From an uncultured Candidatus Peribacteria bacterium (lineage in GTDB: Bacteria > Patescibacteriota > Gracilibacteria > UBA1369): DNA of 64,000 nt. Where the stretch lies: NCBI GenBank assembly GCA_964494085.1, contig CAZBQJ010000003.1, forward strand, positions 137,458 to 201,457. The letters are read 5' to 3'. The notes below the pieces were generated by a model. It was not told the DNA's origin and did not search any database. It saw nothing but the letters and a program-made list of their open reading frames with translations. Position 1 is the first letter of the stretch, and every line of letters begins with the position of its first letter. Position numbers and translations under genes: made by a program. Below, one piece after another: positions 10,444-63,033 of the stretch.

Positions 10444-11658
10444 CTATTCTTCTTCTTTCTTTGCTGTAGTTTTCTTTTTAACCACTTTTTTCACCGGCTT
10501 TTCTTTTGCCTCTACCTCTACCTCGTCTTCAGCATCAGCATCTACTTTTTTCTTAACTTTCTTTGGTTTTTCAATGTTTTCACTTAAGGCTTTAATTGAA
10601 AGTCCAACTCTATGTTCATCCGGTTCAATGGCGATAACTTTAGCTTTAACCTTCTCACCAACTGCCAGTAAAGTGCTGGGGTCAGTAACATCACCATCAG
10701 CAATTTCGCTCACGTGGATCAAGCCATTTATATCATCACTGAGTTTAATAAATGCTCCAAATGGAGTAAGTCGATTAATTTCACCTTCCACTACAGTTCC
10801 AATCTGATAATTCTTGGCGGCCTCCAACCATGGATCTTCAGTTAATCTCTTCATGGAAAGAGAAATCTTGTCGCCTTCCACTCCGATTACCATCACTTGT
10901 ATATTTTCACCGAGTTTACCATAGTCTAAGGGGTTTTTGACATGCCCCCAGGCAATCTCCGAAATATGTACCAAGCCTTCCAAACCATTGAAAGCGACAA
11001 AGATACCAAATTTGACCACACCACTGATTCTTCCGGTCACTGTATCTCCAACTTTCAATCCTTCCAAGGCCGACTGTCTTTGTTCTTCCATGGCCGCCTT
11101 TTCAGAAAGGATCAACTTGCCGTTTTCTTTATCAATATTAATAATTTTAACTCGGAATCTCTGACCAACCAGTTCCTGCAGTCTTTGTAAAATCTGATTG
11201 GAATCTGCACCGTTTACACGCGGATAATGCATAGGAGCCAACTGAGAAACAGGTATAAAGCCCTTGATACCATCGATATCTAGTAGCAAACCGCCCTTAT
11301 TGGCTTCACTGGCAGAAACTTCGATAACCAAGCCCTTTTCAAAGGCATCAGAGAATTTCTTCCAGGTCTTTTCCTGGGATGCTTTACGCAAAGACATTAC
11401 GATATAACCTTCTTCATCTTCTCCATCAATAACATAGGCAGAAACAGTATCGCCAACTTTCAATGATTTTACTGTATCTCCACTATCTTTGGCTTCACGC
11501 CCGCTAATCATACCGACAGCAATCCCGTTCACATCTACAAGAATCTTATTTTTGTGAATAGCGATAACTTCACCTTCCACCAGGTCACCCGGAGATGGTA
11601 ATTTGAAATCCGGAATCGTCTCCAGAAATCCTTGCTCTTTTACAGCGACTTTACTCAT
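10444..11658 (-). CDS. rpsA: 30S ribosomal protein S1 (four S1 repeats recognised by motif) with a Lys/Glu-rich tail
   Basis: Repeated S1 motifs (GDLVEGEV..., GDTVTGRISGVVKFGIFV..., GTVVEGEINRLTPFGAFI...). Confidence 0.8.
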   Translation of the reverse strand: MSKVAVKEQGFLETIPDFKLPSPGDLVEGEVIAIHKNKILVDVNGIAVGMISGREAKDSGDTVKSLKVGDTVSAYVIDGEDEEGYIVMSLRKASQEKTWKKFSDAFEKGLVIEVSASEANKGGLLLDIDGIKGFIPVSQLAPMHYPRVNGADSNQILQRLQELVGQRFRVKIINIDKENGKLILSEKAAMEEQRQSALEGLKVGDTVTGRISGVVKFGIFVAFNGLEGLVHISEIAWGHVKNPLDYGKLGENIQVMVIGVEGDKISLSMKRLTEDPWLEAAKNYQIGTVVEGEINRLTPFGAFIKLSDDINGLIHVSEIADGDVTDPSTLLAVGEKVKAKVIAIEPDEHRVGLSIKALSENIEKPKKVKKKVDADAEDEVEVEAKEKPVKKVVKKKTTAKKEEE

Positions 11659-54972: not shown

Positions 54973-57216
54973 TTATTTGCGACTTCTTTTTCTGCCGTAT
55001 TTCTTTTTCCCGTGCCAGATGGCTGACAATGCGCCAGTTGCACCAAAGACCAGCATCAACTCTGGACCTGTTTTGGTAGCCTCAGCCGGATAAGGACCAC
55101 TATAAGCTGCCGGATGCAGATTCAGATCAGCGATAGACTGGGTGGGTACGTCTGTTAAAGCATTCTTAATCTCAAGCATAAAGGGAATTCCACTAACAAT
55201 TTCACTTTTAGTCGCACTTTCATTTCCCTCATTATCAATGGCTGTGATAGAAAAGAAATATTCCTTCCCATTTTCCAAATCAGGAATATACCAGGTTGTA
55301 CTAGCCTCCTTGGTTAGGACGCTTTTATCTAATGCTTTCACATCCTGGCCATAGGAAATTTTATAATTTTTTATCTGCTTATCATCAGTCGCTGCATCCC
55401 AAACTAAAGTTACTCTTTTATCAGAGCCATAAGCGATCAAACCGCTTACTTGTGATGGCAATCCGGTACCAGTAGGAGTTTCTACGGGAGTTTCTGCCGG
55501 TGGAATAGTTTCTGTAGGAGTTTCAGTTGGAGTGGTGGTCTTTCCATCATTTTGCTCGATACTACCGCCATTTGGGTCAACAGTTATGGTTGCTTGATCT
55601 TCATACGTTTTTTCATTTTGTAATTCATCAACCAATAAAACATTCATTTTATATACGCCAGCTTCAGCAGGGGCTTGCACCGTTCCCAGGTAAACTGTCG
55701 CATCATCAACACTGGCAGTCAACGGTATAATATCAAAATTAAAGATCACCGCAGCTTGCGCCAAGCTTTTCTCACTGAAAACTTTGACGTTTATCACTGA
55801 ACCCGCTTTGATACCAGTAGTTGGCTCTAATTGTAAATCCTCCAATGGTGGGGGAGTAGTATCGATATTAATCTCTATAGGATCCGATGTACCTACTACT
55901 TCCAGGCTGATCGTGTCGACATTACTAACATAAATCGAATGTTTTCCATCAACCAGATCTGCGGTCTGAAAACTAAATTTACCGCTTGGACCGACCGGCA
56001 CACTACCGATTTCCTGATTATTGTCATAAATCTTTATGGTTGAACTGGATTTAGCTGAACCACTAATGGTTTGTTCTGCCTGACTATAAGTGCCTGGTAC
56101 AGGAGTCGAAATAGTCGGTTTTTCTGTAGTCACAGACCCACTGGAACCACCTCCACCGACAACCACAGACTTGTCACCTTGTTTAAATTTATCATCCAAG
56201 TCATTCACTACTATTTTATAAGTTCCTGCCTGAGCAAAACTCAATCCCAGATTAAAGTTATGTTGGCCCAAATCTTCTGCCAAAAACTTATAGTTTACCG
56301 GTAATACAACTCCCGAGCTATTATCACCCTCGGCCGAAAACCTGATTGTACCAGTATAATCCTCAACCGTGTTACCTTCGGCATCAACTGCTTTTACCTT
56401 GAAACTGATATTTTCATTTGGATTTAGAGTAGGTGGTAGGTCAAAAATTTCAAAACCACTCAATGGACCCGCAGTTGCTGCATTTGCCACTTTAATAAAG
56501 TCTCCGCCTGCATCTGCCAGATAATTCTGATCATTGACAAAAGAAAGCCCCACTCTTTTCTCCAACACTATATCCTCGCCCAGATCGATTGCTAAAAGGT
56601 TTGCCAGTCCTGATAGAGAACTACTTACGGTAAATGTCACCTTACCAGAATCATCGGTTACCCCCATATCCGGTTTAATTTGATCCTCCTTTCTGGAAGA
56701 AACCAGCTTTATCGAATGACCATCCAGAGCATTACCATATGAATCCAATACTGAGACACTGACATTTACTTTGTCCAGGCCATCCGCTTTCAATACAGCT
56801 CGGTCTACCATCACAGTTGACTTGGCGCCATCCAGACTGGTTGGGAAGACTTGAAAGGTCGTTTTAACAGTCTTTTCTCCACCATTATTCGCAGTGGCTA
56901 CCACAGAATAACTGCCGGACTTTTGTGTGTGATAATCATATACCACCGCATTTGCAGAACCATTGGTATTTGCCTTGGTAGAGAGAGATAAAGTTACTTT
57001 ATCCGGCTTTGTCACTGCCAAATTCACCAATTCATTCGGCTGAAAATTCTTCACTTTTATCTCAGTCGCTTGCCCGGCGATAGTATCGCTGCCAATCGCC
57101 ATTGGTAGATCGGCCGCCAGAGTTGTTGAAAACCCTCCGGAAACCAGGCTCATGGCTAATAGCACCGATAAAAACGGTATTTTGTGTCTATAATTTTTGT
57201 TTAGCTCTACAAACAT
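54973..57216 (-). CDS. large secreted surface protein with Big_1-type Ig-like repeats, an FN3 domain and a C-terminal hydrophobic/basic anchor
   Basis: Signal peptide MFVELNKNYRHKIPFLSVLLAMSLVSGGFSTTLAA (start refined to 57216). Big_1-like ...DGHSIKLVSS...DDSGKVTFTVSS. FN3 ...VTLVWDAATDD...YKISY. Tail TKTGPELMLVFGATGALSAIWHGKKKYGRKRSRK. Confidence 0.7.
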   Translation of the reverse strand: MFVELNKNYRHKIPFLSVLLAMSLVSGGFSTTLAADLPMAIGSDTIAGQATEIKVKNFQPNELVNLAVTKPDKVTLSLSTKANTNGSANAVVYDYHTQKSGSYSVVATANNGGEKTVKTTFQVFPTSLDGAKSTVMVDRAVLKADGLDKVNVSVSVLDSYGNALDGHSIKLVSSRKEDQIKPDMGVTDDSGKVTFTVSSSLSGLANLLAIDLGEDIVLEKRVGLSFVNDQNYLADAGGDFIKVANAATAGPLSGFEIFDLPPTLNPNENISFKVKAVDAEGNTVEDYTGTIRFSAEGDNSSGVVLPVNYKFLAEDLGQHNFNLGLSFAQAGTYKIVVNDLDDKFKQGDKSVVVGGGGSSGSVTTEKPTISTPVPGTYSQAEQTISGSAKSSSTIKIYDNNQEIGSVPVGPSGKFSFQTADLVDGKHSIYVSNVDTISLEVVGTSDPIEINIDTTPPPLEDLQLEPTTGIKAGSVINVKVFSEKSLAQAAVIFNFDIIPLTASVDDATVYLGTVQAPAEAGVYKMNVLLVDELQNEKTYEDQATITVDPNGGSIEQNDGKTTTPTETPTETIPPAETPVETPTGTGLPSQVSGLIAYGSDKRVTLVWDAATDDKQIKNYKISYGQDVKALDKSVLTKEASTTWYIPDLENGKEYFFSITAIDNEGNESATKSEIVSGIPFMLEIKNALTDVPTQSIADLNLHPAAYSGPYPAEATKTGPELMLVFGATGALSAIWHGKKKYGRKRSRK

Positions 57217-57290: not shown

Positions 57291-58064
57291 ATGAAATCAA
57301 TCAGCCTCAAAACCCTGATTTTTGGTAGTTTGCTATTTCTTCTTAGCGCTGCGATTGTTTTTCTAGGGTTGTTAAGTCAGTCTGTAGCCGTTTTACAAGG
57401 GATGGGGGTGTCACCGGAGGTTATTTACCTAACCGAAATATTACCATTTATCGGTTTATTTTTAGCCTTTTTCCGGATAATTTTAGGAGTCAATGTTACC
57501 AATATTTTCATACCAATTGTCATAATACTTACTTCCTTTGTTTTGGGCATGGGATTAACGCTTGAAGTACTTTTAATCAGTTTGGTGTTAGCCTATTTAA
57601 CCCGCTATCTGATCAGCGAATTCCATCTCCATCTAGCCGTAAAATCCTCATTAATAATAACCTTGGTCTCCATCGGACTTATTCTAATACTTCCATTTTT
57701 GCGTAATTCCAAACTATTTATCGATAGCAATAGCCATTTAGTGATTATTTATGGACTTTTAATCATAGCCATTCTGAATGAAAAGCTTTCCACTTTGAAA
57801 ATGACCCACAATAACCTTTGGGGAGACCTCAAAAATGTTATCAAAACGATCATTTTTGCCATAATTTGTTTTCTTTTCCTGGGAGGTACTATTTATTGGA
57901 GTCCGGAATATCAGTGGCAATGGCCCTGGTTGAAAAATTTCATCATGAACTTTCCCGAATCCATCTTTATTGCCCTATTTTTGACCTTTGCTATCGGTCG
58001 TTACACTGGACTTCGGGTCAGTGAAATTTTCCGTTTTCGCAAGCTAATTTTTAAGAATAATTAA
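57291..58064 (+). CDS. polytopic (7-8 TM) membrane protein, candidate partner of the downstream ATP-grasp fusion
   Basis: 257 aa, almost entirely hydrophobic helices. Its TAA overlaps the next ATG (TAATG at 58062-58066). Possibly the '7TM usually fused to inactive transglutaminase' family, unverified. Confidence 0.5.
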   Translation: MKSISLKTLIFGSLLFLLSAAIVFLGLLSQSVAVLQGMGVSPEVIYLTEILPFIGLFLAFFRIILGVNVTNIFIPIVIILTSFVLGMGLTLEVLLISLVLAYLTRYLISEFHLHLAVKSSLIITLVSIGLILILPFLRNSKLFIDSNSHLVIIYGLLIIAILNEKLSTLKMTHNNLWGDLKNVIKTIIFAIICFLFLGGTIYWSPEYQWQWPWLKNFIMNFPESIFIALFLTFAIGRYTGLRVSEIFRFRKLIFKNN

Positions 58065-60439
58065 TGCTATTCAGCAATACCGGAATTTTAGGTATCAACG
58101 CGCGAAACCTTCTCTTCATCCGACCCTTCAACAAAGAAAAAAGCGTTGAAATCGCCGATGATAAGTTGAAAACAAAGGCTTTTCTCTCCGCCCGAGGTAT
58201 TCCTGTACCCAAATTATTGGCAGTCATCAACAATCGACAAGAGCTGGAAAACTTCAATCCCTTCAAACTCCCCGGAGAATTTGTCCTTAAACCTAACCTT
58301 GGTTATGGAGGACAGGGGATTATCCCCATTCTAGGTCGGAATAATGGTAGGTTTACCGGGCCAGATGGACAGACCTTTAGTAAGGATGACCTTTATGAGC
58401 ATATGAAGCACATTCTCAGCGGCGATTTTTCTATCAGCGATCGGGCAGATCGAGCCTTTTTCGAAAAGCTGATAGTTACTGATGATTTATTGGGAAAATA
58501 TTCATATAAAGGGCTTCCGGACATCAGAATAATCGTTCATAATTTAGTACCGGTAATGGCAATGCTGCGCCTTCCGACCATTGAGTCAAATGGCAAGGCA
58601 AACATCCATTTAGGTGCTATTGGAGCTGGAATCGATCTAGCCAAAGGCGAAGTTACACATTTACTTTATCGTCATAAAATCATCAAAGAAATCCCTGGGC
58701 AGGGGCCAATCAGAGGCCTAAAAATACCATTCTGGGATGAGCTGCTGAAAATCGCCAGTAAAGCTCAACTCGCCACTAACCTCGGTTATATGGGGGCCGA
58801 CATCGCCATAGATAAACATCAAGGGCCTGTCCTTTTGGAAATAAATGCTCGTGCCGGTATCAGTATTCAGTTGGCCAATCTTACTCCATTGCGAAAAAGA
58901 TTGGAAAAATTAGACGAGGTAAATATTAAAAGCGTAGAAAAAGGAGTACGACTGGCCAAAGATATGTTCGGTTATTCTATCGAAAAGGATATCAAATCTC
59001 TATCCGGAAAAAAAGTTATTGGCATTTATGAACATCTCGAGTTTTTCCATCACAATGAAAGTATCGAAAGTGTCGCCTTTATCAACACTTCCAGGAAAAA
59101 AAGTTACATAAGTCTAAAGCTGGCCAAACAACTCGGTATCATCAAATCCAAAAAACAAAAGGATATAGACAAGCTAACCATTAAGTTGAAATTCAAACTT
59201 GCTGGCACAAAGCTCACTTCGATTTTCAAATTGGATAAAAATATCCGCAAGAAATATGATGTCATAATCGGTAATCGCGATTTGACTGGACAATTCCTGG
59301 TTGACGCTTCAATCAACAATCTCTTATCGGAAAAATCATCTGGGCAAACCAGCAAAATTTTTATCTCCAATTATGACCCGATTGAAACTGATCGACAAAT
59401 CTGCAAAGTAAACAGCCAACTGAGATTTTTGAGTTTTCTGCGGCCAACCAATTTTTCCGAGGAATCCAAGAAATTCCAAGCCGATCATAGCTATAACCCT
59501 CAATTTATCTACAAAGAACCAGATCAGGACTTTCAACAGTTAAAGAAACATTTATTAAAAATAAAGTACGATGATAGTGATCTTGGAAAACTCTTTCACA
59601 AGAAAATTTTAGAATTACACAATCGCTTGGATATCATCTCGGCCAGAGGATCAGAGTCTTTTAGCGACCTCTCAAAAATAGGTTTTGGCTTCCCCACCGC
59701 GGCAGACCTGGACGAGATCAGATACAGTCCCAACCGTATTCATTCTACAAAACATCTTAAAAAATATACTTCTCTTGAATTGAAACATATTTTTGAAGAA
59801 GTACTTGAGCAGTACGGAATCCACAATTGGCGAGTCATACTACGTGAAAATATGATCAGTAAATGTATGGTGAATCAAAACAAGAAGGTATTAATCAAGA
59901 AAAACAGCTTTTTCAATGAGCAGCGTGTCAAAGACCTGGTAATTCATGAAATTGAAACACACCTTTTGACCAGCAGAAACGGAAGCCTGCAAAAATATAA
60001 ATTATTTAATTACGGTTTCGCTAATTATTTGGAAACACAAGAAGGGTTGGCAATCAATAATGTCTTATCACAGAGCCCACATCATACTGAAGCCCGTCAC
60101 AAGGAAATACTTACCGAAGCGATTTACCTGGCCGATAAACTTTCATTAGTCGAATTATTCCAAAAACTACGAGAAAAAAAGTTGTCAGAAAAAAGCGCCA
60201 TGGATATCTGCTTTAGAGTCAAAAGAGGAATAGGGGACACTTCCAAAGGTGGTAGTTTCACTAAGGATTACTGTTATTTCAGTGGTCGAAAGAAAATCAA
60301 AGCATTTTTGGATGAGGGAGGGGATTTGCGTGATCTTTATCACGGTAAATACAGTGTTGACGACGTAAATATAATTAAAAACATTAGTTCTTTTAAAATC
60401 CCTCCACTTTTGCCTAAATGGCTAAACAAAGACCTCTAA
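58064..60439 (+). CDS. fusion protein: RimK-related ATP-grasp amino-acid ligase + degenerate RimB/DUF785-like segment + DUF1704/MATCAP-like (QEGLA-motif) metallocarboxypeptidase
   Basis: aa 1-300: GILGINARNLLFI, DDKLKTKAFL, FVLKPNLGYGGQGI, LLEINARAG. aa 315-415 ends in IIGNRDLTGQFLVD. aa 430-791 carries HEIETH (59945-59962) and QEGLA (60038-60052). Confidence 0.7.
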   Translation: MLFSNTGILGINARNLLFIRPFNKEKSVEIADDKLKTKAFLSARGIPVPKLLAVINNRQELENFNPFKLPGEFVLKPNLGYGGQGIIPILGRNNGRFTGPDGQTFSKDDLYEHMKHILSGDFSISDRADRAFFEKLIVTDDLLGKYSYKGLPDIRIIVHNLVPVMAMLRLPTIESNGKANIHLGAIGAGIDLAKGEVTHLLYRHKIIKEIPGQGPIRGLKIPFWDELLKIASKAQLATNLGYMGADIAIDKHQGPVLLEINARAGISIQLANLTPLRKRLEKLDEVNIKSVEKGVRLAKDMFGYSIEKDIKSLSGKKVIGIYEHLEFFHHNESIESVAFINTSRKKSYISLKLAKQLGIIKSKKQKDIDKLTIKLKFKLAGTKLTSIFKLDKNIRKKYDVIIGNRDLTGQFLVDASINNLLSEKSSGQTSKIFISNYDPIETDRQICKVNSQLRFLSFLRPTNFSEESKKFQADHSYNPQFIYKEPDQDFQQLKKHLLKIKYDDSDLGKLFHKKILELHNRLDIISARGSESFSDLSKIGFGFPTAADLDEIRYSPNRIHSTKHLKKYTSLELKHIFEEVLEQYGIHNWRVILRENMISKCMVNQNKKVLIKKNSFFNEQRVKDLVIHEIETHLLTSRNGSLQKYKLFNYGFANYLETQEGLAINNVLSQSPHHTEARHKEILTEAIYLADKLSLVELFQKLREKKLSEKSAMDICFRVKRGIGDTSKGGSFTKDYCYFSGRKKIKAFLDEGGDLRDLYHGKYSVDDVNIIKNISSFKIPPLLPKWLNKDL

Positions 60440-61511: not shown

Positions 61512-62669
61512 TTATGTTGATACCGATTCATCAGTCCAACGTTCTTGTTTCTGATCTATAACAGCTTTACCTGCAACACCTTCTTCCAATTTCTTCACCA
61601 CAATCAAAGTCACGTCATCATCTTGGACATGCTCCTCTACAAATTTCGAAAAATCTTTAGCGATATTTTGGATAATTGATTGCGCATCTCCATTTCCCGC
61701 ATACAATCCAATTGCCGTTTTCAGTCTGTCCAAGCCAAAAAGTTCCCCCTTCATATTTCTGGCTTCTGTAATACCATCACTATATAAAACAATTACATCT
61801 CCAGTCGATAAAGGTAAATCCTTCTCTTTAATGATTTTGCTATTGTCGGCAACCATCCCCAGGGCAATTCCACCACTGACCATAGATTCAACTGTACCTG
61901 TTTTCGCTCTATATATAACCAAATATTCATGTCCACAACCGATATAAGTCATTTTTTTCGCCAAATTATCCCATTTTAGCATCAACATGCTCATAAACAT
62001 GGTCGCTCTTATTCTCGTTTTCAATCGTTTATTGGTCTGCACTACCACTTCATAGGCTGAATCGTAAACTTCTGCATAAGCATTAATTAATGTATTTACC
62101 ATCGTCATGACAATAGCAGCCGGAACTCCATGCCCCGTCACATCACCAACATAAAAATAAGTACTATTGCCTGCCTTTATAAAATCTAGGCTATCACCAC
62201 CCAATTCTTCCGCTGATCTATTTTTCACTGCTATGTCAAACCCCTCAATCGAAGGTGCCAGAACAGGAATTAATTCTCTTTGTAACTGACCGGCAATATG
62301 TAATTCGCCACTGACCCTTCTACTTTGTTCCAGTTCTTCTGTAACTTTTTCCAGGCTAGATGTTACTTCATTAAAAAAATATCCGAAAATACCAATTTCA
62401 TCCGTTCTATTAGTGTAGATTTTTTTATAACGTCGATTGGTTAACAAGGCCTTAACCTGGTCTAAAACTCGATTGAAAGGAACGACAAAATCCGCAAAGT
62501 AAACTCCCAAAGCCATCACAAACATGACCAGACCCATAATTGCTACGGCGCGCCAGCCAAAGCCAGTCCAGTCAAAAATATAAGCCAATCCAAAAAATAT
62601 CACAAATACAGCCAGAGCCAGCAGCACAAAATGTACATAAATCCTTTTTGTCAGGATATTTTTATGCAT
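61512..62669 (-). CDS. membrane-bound PP2C/SpoIIE-family serine phosphatase with a HAMP-like linker
   Basis: Two N-terminal TM helices and a HAMP-like segment. PP2C motifs GGDSLDF, GDVTGHGVPAA, LYSDGITEA, DDVTLIVV. Confidence 0.8.
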   Translation of the reverse strand: MHKNILTKRIYVHFVLLALAVFVIFFGLAYIFDWTGFGWRAVAIMGLVMFVMALGVYFADFVVPFNRVLDQVKALLTNRRYKKIYTNRTDEIGIFGYFFNEVTSSLEKVTEELEQSRRVSGELHIAGQLQRELIPVLAPSIEGFDIAVKNRSAEELGGDSLDFIKAGNSTYFYVGDVTGHGVPAAIVMTMVNTLINAYAEVYDSAYEVVVQTNKRLKTRIRATMFMSMLMLKWDNLAKKMTYIGCGHEYLVIYRAKTGTVESMVSGGIALGMVADNSKIIKEKDLPLSTGDVIVLYSDGITEARNMKGELFGLDRLKTAIGLYAGNGDAQSIIQNIAKDFSKFVEEHVQDDDVTLIVVKKLEEGVAGKAVIDQKQERWTDESVST

Positions 62670-63033
62670 TTTCTAAAGTTTTTAAAAATTCCGGCATAGT
62701 TTTATAGTGTTCAGTTGTCTCAAATATACCAATAGTATTCAGTACATCCTCAACATTTTTCCTTGCGCCGATTAAAACCAGCTTTTTGTTGGCTAATTTT
62801 AGGTTTTCGCTATATTGAAAGAGTAGTCCGATGCCCTGACTGTTTATATATTCCAAATTAACAAAGCTAAATACCAAAATTTTCGGCTCTACAGAATGGA
62901 CAATCTTTTCTAATTCTTTACCTTTCTCATGAAGAGTATAAGAGTCCATACTACCGATAAAATCCACTGACCAGAAGTGAGGATTTGTGTCTTTACTAAC
63001 CACTAATTCTAAAGTATTTCCTATCATAACCAT
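62662..63033 (-). CDS. STAS-domain anti-sigma-factor antagonist (RsbV/SpoIIAA-like)
   Basis: 123 aa. ...YINSQGIGLL... (phosphorylatable Ser context). 8-nt overlap with the downstream phosphatase gene. Confidence 0.7.
   Translation of the reverse strand: MVMIGNTLELVVSKDTNPHFWSVDFIGSMDSYTLHEKGKELEKIVHSVEPKILVFSFVNLEYINSQGIGLLFQYSENLKLANKKLVLIGARKNVEDVLNTIGIFETTEHYKTMPEFLKTLENA

Follow-up and report, generated by a model that had tools for sequence, protein, structure and literature searches.

Organization of the Locus

The stretch of DNA analyzed here (hereafter, the window) comprises 64,000 nucleotides of contig CAZBQJ010000003.1 (assembly GCA_964494085.1) of an uncultured Candidatus Peribacteria bacterium, and the present work concerns two adjoining genes on its plus strand. 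The first of them (57291-58064) encodes a membrane protein of 257 amino acids (aa), in which an N-terminal anchor helix precedes a module of seven transmembrane helices (7TM), whose homolog in RloB is the C-terminal half of that protein. The second (58064-60439, with the stop codon TAA at 60437-60439) encodes a protein of 791 aa, which joins an ATP-grasp ligase domain of the RloC/TIGR02291 type (aa 1-300; 58064-58963), a retropepsin-fold domain of the RloA/RimB type, DUF785 (aa 314-418; 59003-59317), and a zinc carboxypeptidase domain of the MATCAP/QEGLA type, DUF1704 (aa 438-791; 59375-60436). A ligase, a 7TM protein and a retropepsin also make up the RloC/RloB/RloA stress-tolerance system, characterized genetically in 2025 for the rlo operon of Pseudomonas aeruginosa, which encodes the secreted retropepsin RloA, the protein RloB, composed of a 7TM module and an inactive transglutaminase, and the ATP-grasp enzyme RloC (Lormand et al., 2025, mBio, PMC12239564). 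The fusion is a real, conserved and uncharacterized architectural variant of Rlo, related to RimK/RimB.

At the junction of the two genes, which reads AAG AAT AAT TAA TGC, the stop codon TAA of the 7TM gene (58062-58064) and the ATG of the fusion gene (58064-58066) overlap by one base ('TAATG'), an arrangement typical of translational coupling. The preliminary description of this DNA, made from the sequence alone, had placed an open reading frame (ORF) of 791 aa at 58064-60439 and noted its overlap with the upstream stop codon; both ORFs were recovered at the same positions. At its 3' end the fusion ORF overlaps the end of the convergent queA gene. A shift of the gene boundaries due to a recoded UGA was considered and ruled out: in-frame TGA is absent from both genes, and both stop codons are TAA.

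Homologs were searched for among 5.8 billion proteins, and the loci encoding them were scanned with one genome taken per species. More than 120 full-length homologs (785-808 aa, 44-74% identity) were retrieved, all of them matching both PF14397 and PF08014. The scan gave 80 species-level loci, nearly all of which belong to metagenome-assembled genomes of Peregrinibacteria, Peribacteria, Gracilibacteria or the 'Patescibacteria group', and their ORFs are intact. The 791-aa protein itself, with the same neighbours, is present in identical form on three independent metagenome assemblies. An AlphaFold model of the fusion, built on 45 homologs, has a mean predicted local distance difference test (pLDDT) score of 83 and a predicted template modelling (pTM) score of 0.49. 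Since only a trivial change, located at an ATGA overlap, separates the fused form from the split form of the family, described below, the fusion might be suspected to be an assembly or frameshift artefact, or else a decaying pseudogene. This suspicion is refuted by the three assemblies, the number of homologs and intact loci, the invariance of the catalytic residues and the confident model, and we give it a practically negligible probability. Both the check for an artefact and the profile searches proposed in the preliminary description thus favoured the fusion, which is widespread and for which the ATP-grasp and DUF1704 profiles, as well as the 7TM_transglut profile for its partner, are significant.

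The Ligase and Carboxypeptidase Domains

In Pfam, the N-terminal domain matches PF14397 (ATPgrasp_ST) over aa 14-284 and profile positions 2-277 of 278 (E 1.8e-63; 214.8 bits, the cutoff being 31.4). In NCBIfam, it matches TIGR02291, 'alpha-L-glutamate ligase-like', with E 4e-83 and 278.9 bits, which is below the equivalog cutoff of 314.2; judged by these profiles, the domain is a member of the TIGR02291 family and, by the NCBI threshold, not an equivalog. The genuine RloC of Legionella also matches PF14397, and the ligase domain from the window is 40% identical to the RloC proteins of Aeromonas and Legionella. In Foldseek comparisons, the N-terminal domain of the AlphaFold model superposes on ArgX, LysX and RimK with E about 1e-7. 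These three are ATP-grasp enzymes that add amino acids to C-terminal carboxylates of proteins. The domain does not qualify as a RimK ortholog, as it scores 46 bits with TIGR00768 against a cutoff of 143 and its sequence matches RimK structures with E 0.5-0.7, nor is a TTL-type identity supported, PF03133 having been matched by two of 45 members with E about 0.007. The earlier assignment of aa 1-300 to a RimK-related, 'alpha-L-glutamate ligase-like' ATP-grasp family is therefore borne out by both profiles and by the fold. The catalytic residues of the ligase, among them the Lys that binds ATP and the D/E-x-N that binds Mg, namely K76, D246, E259, N261 and R263, are present in the window protein and are invariant across the 81 sequences that were aligned for the analysis of conservation (38-74% identity). 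The domain is, by these signatures, an intact ATP-grasp ligase of the RloC type and is predicted to be active.

The C-terminal domain is matched by PF08014 (MATCAP) over aa 471-775, with E 6.4e-46 and 157 bits against a cutoff of 27 (Pfam), and by TIGR02421, 'QEGLA motif protein', with E 3e-50 and 171 bits, below the equivalog cutoff of 339 (NCBIfam). Its HEIETH motif (aa 628-633; 59945-59962) and QEGLA motif (aa 659-663; 60038-60052) stand opposite HEIGTH and EEGLA, respectively, in the alignment with human MATCAP, and the corresponding part of the model superposes on the structure 7z5g (Foldseek E 2e-12, TM-score for the target 0.64). MATCAP strips C-terminal residues from an acidic tail (structures 7z5g and 7z6s). 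The positions of both motifs and the kinship with MATCAP had been given in the preliminary description, and the profiles agree with them. All 81 sequences have H628, E629, H633 and E660 without exception, and the domain is predicted from them to be an intact and active zinc carboxypeptidase of the MATCAP type. The invariance of the ligase and MATCAP residues among proteins of only 38-74% identity argues that selection has kept both domains as catalysts. Proteins with a MATCAP domain are numerous (2,327 representatives at E<=1e-3); among the best 150 of these, about 35 are of fusion length and most are standalone proteins of about 360 aa.

The Degenerate Retropepsin Domain

No Pfam family was matched within aa 300-430 of the window protein, and PF05618 (DUF785) gave no match at E<=10 for this protein or for 45 relatives, 12 of which had weak matches to the retropepsin clan. 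A profile of the segment, compared with the PDB, found weak matches to Ddi1 (E about 0.1), which fell exactly on the D-T-G-A motif, and did not retrieve RloA; alignments with single RloA sequences, obtained with hhalign, were in register but insignificant (probability 2-8%). Modelled alone, the domain reached a pLDDT of 91. The best Foldseek match of this model was RloA of P. fluorescens (9g58; E 1.3e-5, TM-score 0.67), ranks 1-3 being taken by 9g58 and RloA2 of P. aeruginosa (9g59) and ranks 7-8 by the DUF785 protein Lpg0085 (2pma). Structures of RloA and DUF785 proteins (TM-scores 0.64-0.67) outranked most structures of Ddi1 and all those of the HIV protease (0.41-0.55 for these two).

In the split form of the family (locus L090, 2993-8509, and locus L091, 1666-7182), a gene for a PKD-7TM protein is followed by one for an ATP-grasp ligase joined to a DUF785 domain with the canonical motif V-D-T-G-A-G, and then by a separate MATCAP gene; the last two genes overlap in ATGA. 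Downstream of them lie genes for a second, unrelated ATP-grasp_3 protein, a GH130 enzyme and two glycosyltransferases, which hints at a link of the split-form lineage to glycan metabolism. The DUF785 domain of L090 matches PF05618 with E 1.7e-6 and 28.5 bits, above the cutoff of 27, and it is found by the window-type profile with an hhalign probability of 98.6% and E 8e-16. The structural match, together with this transitive profile link through the split form, identifies the middle domain as a retropepsin of the DUF785/RimB/RloA type. As to the check for DUF785 proposed earlier, the direct match to PF05618 failed and the homology was established transitively; the segment had been described as RimB/DUF785-like, with N-T-S in its active site and probably inactive, and this identity is now confirmed by structure and by the transitive homology.

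The window protein reads N341-T-S (59084-59092) where D-T-G is expected, and about 45 central residues of DUF785 are deleted from it. In the work on Rlo, the corresponding type of substitution, D48N in RloA, served as the catalytically dead control (PMC12239564). With Asn in place of the catalytic Asp and the central region deleted, the middle domain of the window protein is predicted to be non-catalytic. The alignment indicates that the degeneration of the site concerns most of the family and not the window alone: the first position is occupied by D in 37, by N in 22 and by other residues in 22 of the 81 sequences, and the full D-[TS]-G motif is kept in about 10 of the 80 loci. The motif I-I-G-x-R-D-L..F-L-I-D, on the other hand, is near-invariant in the 81 sequences and is kept in the window as I-I-G-x-R-D-L..F-L-V-D. 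Retention of the fold, while catalysis has mostly been lost, suggests a structural role. Retropepsins are obligate dimers, and the middle domain probably serves as a dimerization or scaffold module.

The Membrane Partner

The 257-aa protein matches PF14402 (7TM_transglut) with E 1.2e-9 and 38.5 bits against a cutoff of 25, and the RloB profile NF052267 aligns with it over profile positions 319-506 of 508, scoring 24 bits against a cutoff of 900. Its topology comprises one N-terminal anchor helix and seven transmembrane helices. The inactive transglutaminase PF14400, carried by RloB of Legionella, was not found in the window protein, which has no extracytoplasmic domain, either transglutaminase or PKD. 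Both the family profile and the topology uphold the initial view of it as a coupled protein with 7-8 transmembrane helices, belonging to the 7TM_transglut family and having no visible transglutaminase-like domain. The short form is genuine, since a TAA codon 9 nt upstream of the ATG excludes a longer N-terminus.

Motifs common to the window protein and to RloB of Legionella and Aeromonas include P52, G66, P75, R105, E164 and G240..E245..R248-F249; among the shared features are a G..T.G...P motif and an invariant Glu embedded in the membrane (E164). The last of these motifs belongs to the cytoplasmic juxtamembrane C-terminal segment (aa 236-257; 57996-58061, + strand; GRYTGLRVSEIFRFRKLIFKNN), which contains six K/R residues in 22 aa, as fits the positive-inside rule. 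Its helix, G-(L/Y)-(R/K)-x-x-E-x-x-R-F, is conserved from RloB to Patescibacteria, the window form being G-L-R-x-x-E-x-x-R-F, and we consider it, on the strength of this conservation, a candidate docking site for the cytoplasmic ligase.

The survey of the fusion and its 7TM neighbour, suggested in the preliminary description, found a 7TM homolog directly upstream and on the same strand in 73 of the 80 loci; for four of the remaining seven, upstream DNA is lacking. At most loci the partner is a protein of about 500 aa, consisting of a signal peptide, a PKD domain, an unassigned region and the 7TM module, without the inactive transglutaminase of RloB. The short partner, of about 255 aa, is found in the window and in its five closest species-level relatives.

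Glutamate-Ended Tails of the Long-Form Partners

The C-termini of 58 partners could be read, 52 of them of the long form (PKD and 7TM; loci L004-L080) and six of the window clade. All 52 long-form partners end in Glu, and 48 of the 52 in Glu-Glu; the genes encode 1-4 Glu in a row, 8-10 residues past the conserved R-F-R motif. Among 548 other ORFs of at least 200 aa from the same loci, 6.4% end in Glu and 1.3% in Glu-Glu. The tail should be cytoplasmic, given the N-out topology and the seven transmembrane helices. RimK lengthens the Glu-Glu end of the ribosomal protein S6, and the tail of the long-form partners resembles both this end and the acidic tail trimmed by MATCAP, so that the 7TM tail could itself be a substrate.

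In this case the ligase would extend the cytoplasmic C-terminus of the 7TM partner and the MATCAP domain would cut it back, and a membrane protein would be tuned by reversible C-terminal glutamylation, in the manner of the tubulin code or of S6. Such an explanation draws on the Glu end of all the long-form partners, on the position of a cytoplasmic tail beside a translationally coupled ligase and on the precedents of RimK and MATCAP. However, the window partner ends in ...FKNN, N or K being the last residue throughout its clade of six, yet their enzymes differ from the others at no catalytic position; the tail of the split form (...KKLSHKS) and those of the Aeromonas and Legionella RloB proteins are non-acidic as well. 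Besides, a terminal Glu could be a docking motif rather than a substrate, and shared ancestry inflates the statistic of the tails. For the locus in the window we therefore think this explanation rather unlikely. A changed substrate in the window clade was also considered and found no support, because the six conserved positions at which its enzymes differ from those with Glu-Glu-tailed partners include no catalytic one.

A wider version of the same idea applies to the majority of Peregrinibacteria and Peribacteria, in which the 7TM C-terminus might be the substrate of both the ligase and the MATCAP domain. It would amount to a 'tail code' of a bacterial membrane protein, with writer and eraser in one polypeptide, and the window clade, having lost its terminal Glu together with the extracellular domain and the Asp of the retropepsin site, would be derived and act on another acceptor. 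This, too, we regard as speculative and hardly probable. Nevertheless, the invariant Glu end of the long-form partners offers a concrete and cheaply testable substrate hypothesis, namely that a bacterial membrane protein is reversibly glutamylated at its C-terminus.

Proposed Function and Alternatives

In our opinion, and with a confidence slightly above even, the two genes represent a condensed, wholly cytoplasm-facing variant of Rlo in a Patescibacterium of the Peregrinibacteria/Gracilibacteria group, which makes a C-terminal peptide, probably rich in Glu, at the membrane and also trims it. The architecture is near-certain by itself; the chemistry and the acceptor we infer. The proposed course of events is as follows. 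The fusion would be made stoichiometrically with the 7TM module by virtue of translational coupling, and would most likely dock on the conserved cytoplasmic juxtamembrane helix of this module. The ligase would use ATP to attach amino acids, of which L-glutamate is the most probable by analogy with RimK, to a C-terminal carboxylate, giving a short acidic tail or oligopeptide, and the MATCAP domain would take residues off the same C-terminus, so that the opposing activities, acting in cis, could set the length of the chain or its steady-state level. The retropepsin domain would provide dimerization or a scaffold, while the 7TM partner may anchor the enzyme to the membrane and either take up the product or hand it on, as is thought for RloB. 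The function of writer and eraser, the amino acid used and the role of the 7TM protein are likewise what we infer, by analogy with the known families.

Several points weigh against the reading just given. The chemistry of ligase and trimmer rests on family analogy for every member, and the choice of Glu is borrowed from RimK and not from an RloC-type ligase such as that of Pseudomonas. The arrangement of the domains relative to each other is undefined at a pTM of 0.49. In locus L092, a standalone MATCAP gene occurs without an adjoining ligase or 7TM gene. The Rlo protease acts in the periplasm, so that the product of Rlo must cross the membrane, whereas both peptidase-type domains of the fusion are cytoplasmic, so that the logic of the system may differ.

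A non-protein acceptor is possible as well, since Pfam names PF14397 'sugar-transfer associated' and the split form lies beside glycosyltransferase genes. The ligase could then build a free or carrier-linked polymer or an amide-linked decoration (poly-Glu, a glycan-linked peptide), which the 7TM protein would export to the surface, with MATCAP making primers or recycling the product, the whole system being biosynthetic and not regulatory. Cyanophycin synthetase, which has a primer-making peptidase site inside a polymer-forming ATP-grasp enzyme, may be counted in favour of this alternative, as may the genes that follow the split form, coding for the second ATP-grasp protein, GH130 and the glycosyltransferases. 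In Pseudomonas, moreover, deletion of rloB or rloC suppresses the defects that result from the loss of the periplasmic RloA proteases (PMC12239564); a product that depends on RloBC would accordingly reach the periplasm. But no glycosyltransferase genes adjoin the pair in the window, where the 7TM gene is the sole tightly conserved partner, and transport by the 7TM module would be an assumption. The alternative also overlaps our preferred explanation, differing from it mainly in the fate of the product, and as a separate account we hold it to be unlikely.

One more possibility is that the enzyme modifies the tail of a soluble cytoplasmic protein, for instance a ribosomal one in the manner of RimK and S6, and that the 7TM protein is a sensor balancing the ligase and the peptidase on envelope or osmotic signals. 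The fold of the ligase is indeed nearest to RimK, LysX and ArgX, the extracellular PKD and further domain of the long-form partners could sense, and the genes of Rlo and QEGLA either respond to hypo-osmotic conditions or are of importance under them (PMC12239564; PMC10308900). The window partner, however, has no extracellular domain for sensing. The window also encodes an S1-like protein (10444-11658, - strand) with four S1 domains and the C-terminus ...AKKEEE, which was considered as a ribosomal substrate. This lead was dropped, because the S1 homolog beside the standalone MATCAP gene in L092 ends in ...KKTAK, the acidic end thus not being conserved, and because rpsF was not found within the window. 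Modification of a soluble protein under the control of a membrane sensor appears to us quite improbable.

The natural presence of ligase, retropepsin and carboxypeptidase in one soluble polypeptide provides a compact handle on the products of RloC-type ligases.

Neighbouring Genes and Stop Codon Usage

Other genes recur near the fusion in 19-37 of the 80 loci, namely queA, those for a SpoIIE-type phosphatase, a STAS protein and a Big_1/FN3 surface protein, cysS and a YggT-family gene. As only the 7TM gene is near-universal, most of them are judged to reflect synteny of the lineage. The SpoIIE-type PP2C phosphatase and the STAS-domain protein, a partner-switching pair, are encoded just downstream of the fusion (61512-63033, - strand) and occur in 35 and 19-23 of the 80 loci, respectively; the same pair lies directly beside the standalone MATCAP gene in L092 (7132-8580). 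It may reflect either conserved synteny or a regulatory link.

Upstream, a divergent gene (54973-57216, - strand) encodes a surface protein of 747 aa with Big_1/invasin-like, MG2-like, Big_6 and FN3 domains, a C-terminal transmembrane anchor and a basic tail; 29 of the 80 loci have a homolog of it upstream. The TTG at 57300, which the ORF finder gives as the start, probably extends the gene too far, and gene callers take the ATG at 57216.

None of the 40 window ORFs of at least 200 codons ends in TGA (27 end in TAA and 13 in TAG), and no well-supported gene contains an in-frame TGA. Stops at TGA are likewise absent (0 of 37) in four of the five closest relatives (L002, L003, L006 and L055), other loci having 16-29%. 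Gracilibacteria use genetic code 25, and in the lineage of the window UGA may be unassigned or reassigned, as in this code.

Comparison with Known Systems

In automatic annotation, members of the family bear the names 'tyrosine/phenylalanine carboxypeptidase domain-containing protein', 'DUF1704 domain-containing protein' and 'alpha-L-glutamate ligase'. The searchable literature (Iyer et al., 2009, was outside its scope) contained no paper linking MATCAP, DUF1704 or QEGLA with RimK, ATP-grasp enzymes or Rlo, and the statement in the preliminary description that no characterized example of the triple fusion is known stands within the same bounds.

The closest known counterpart is Rlo, with which the window pair shares the ligase family (PF14397/TIGR02291), a homologous 7TM module and tight linkage of the genes, RloA being moreover the best structural match of the retropepsin domain. 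The canonical rloA-rloB-rloC operon is present in the Legionella locus, and an unannotated one was seen in L081 (NZ_AP026896.1), a 4.9-Mb 'plasmid' record of Aeromonas caviae that is evidently a chromosome. The differences are considerable. The retropepsin of the window is fused to the ligase, has no signal peptide and hence is cytoplasmic, and it is inactivated and shortened by about 45 residues; the fusion adds a MATCAP carboxypeptidase, which is lacking in the Rlo operons; and the 7TM protein has no periplasmic inactive transglutaminase domain, the long-form relatives having PKD instead. The host of the window pair is a Patescibacterium, whereas RloB is 96% proteobacterial according to the authors of the Rlo study, who regard the operon as derived from rimK/rimB (PMC12239564). 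Among more distant relatives, an unannotated ORF of 584 aa was noticed on a plasmid of Halobacterium sp. DL1 (L083, 5176-6930), the C-terminal part of which is 36% identical to the window ATP-grasp domain and the N-terminal region of which is hydrophobic; judging from this, it is possibly a membrane-fused RloC-like ligase of a haloarchaeon.

With RimK/RimB, the window protein has in common the pairing of an ATP-grasp ligase with a cytoplasmic DUF785 retropepsin, a close ligase fold and the logic of C-terminal addition and removal. As to the removal, the secreted RloA proteases cleave runs of at least eight Glu residues, and RloA and RimB both cut poly-Glu (PMC12239564). In contrast to RimK/RimB, however, the ligase of the window is not a RimK ortholog, a membrane partner and a MATCAP domain are present, and a link to S6 is not apparent.

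The eukaryotic tubulin tyrosination cycle, carried out by the ATP-grasp enzyme TTL and the detyrosinase MATCAP/TMCP (KIAA0895L), is similar in that the window protein contains a true MATCAP-family domain with the same HExxxH...EGLA metal site, paired with an ATP-grasp enzyme. It differs in that the ligase is of the RloC and not of the TTL type, that both predicted activities reside in one polypeptide, and that there is no tubulin.

Finally, proteobacteria too have a peptidase of the MATCAP family coupled genetically to an ATP-grasp ligase. In Shinella and Sinorhizobium, a standalone QEGLA gene is located between the genes of an N-formylglutamate-amidohydrolase-like protein (FGase) and a GshB-type ATP-grasp enzyme, and in Photobacterium damselae low salinity induces the QEGLA gene and the adjacent 'GshB' gene 27- to 38-fold (PMC10308900). 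Unlike the window locus, the proteobacterial FGase-QEGLA-GshB operon has an ATP-grasp enzyme of the GSH-S type, separate genes and neither a 7TM protein nor a retropepsin, and its QEGLA protein carries another N-terminal extension, of about 260 aa. The ligase and the MATCAP domain thus recur as partners in the fusion, in the split form and in the proteobacterial operon. The MATCAP fold has been wired to bacterial ATP-grasp amino-acid ligases repeatedly, a finding of relevance to the origin of the tubulin tyrosination cycle among prokaryotes.

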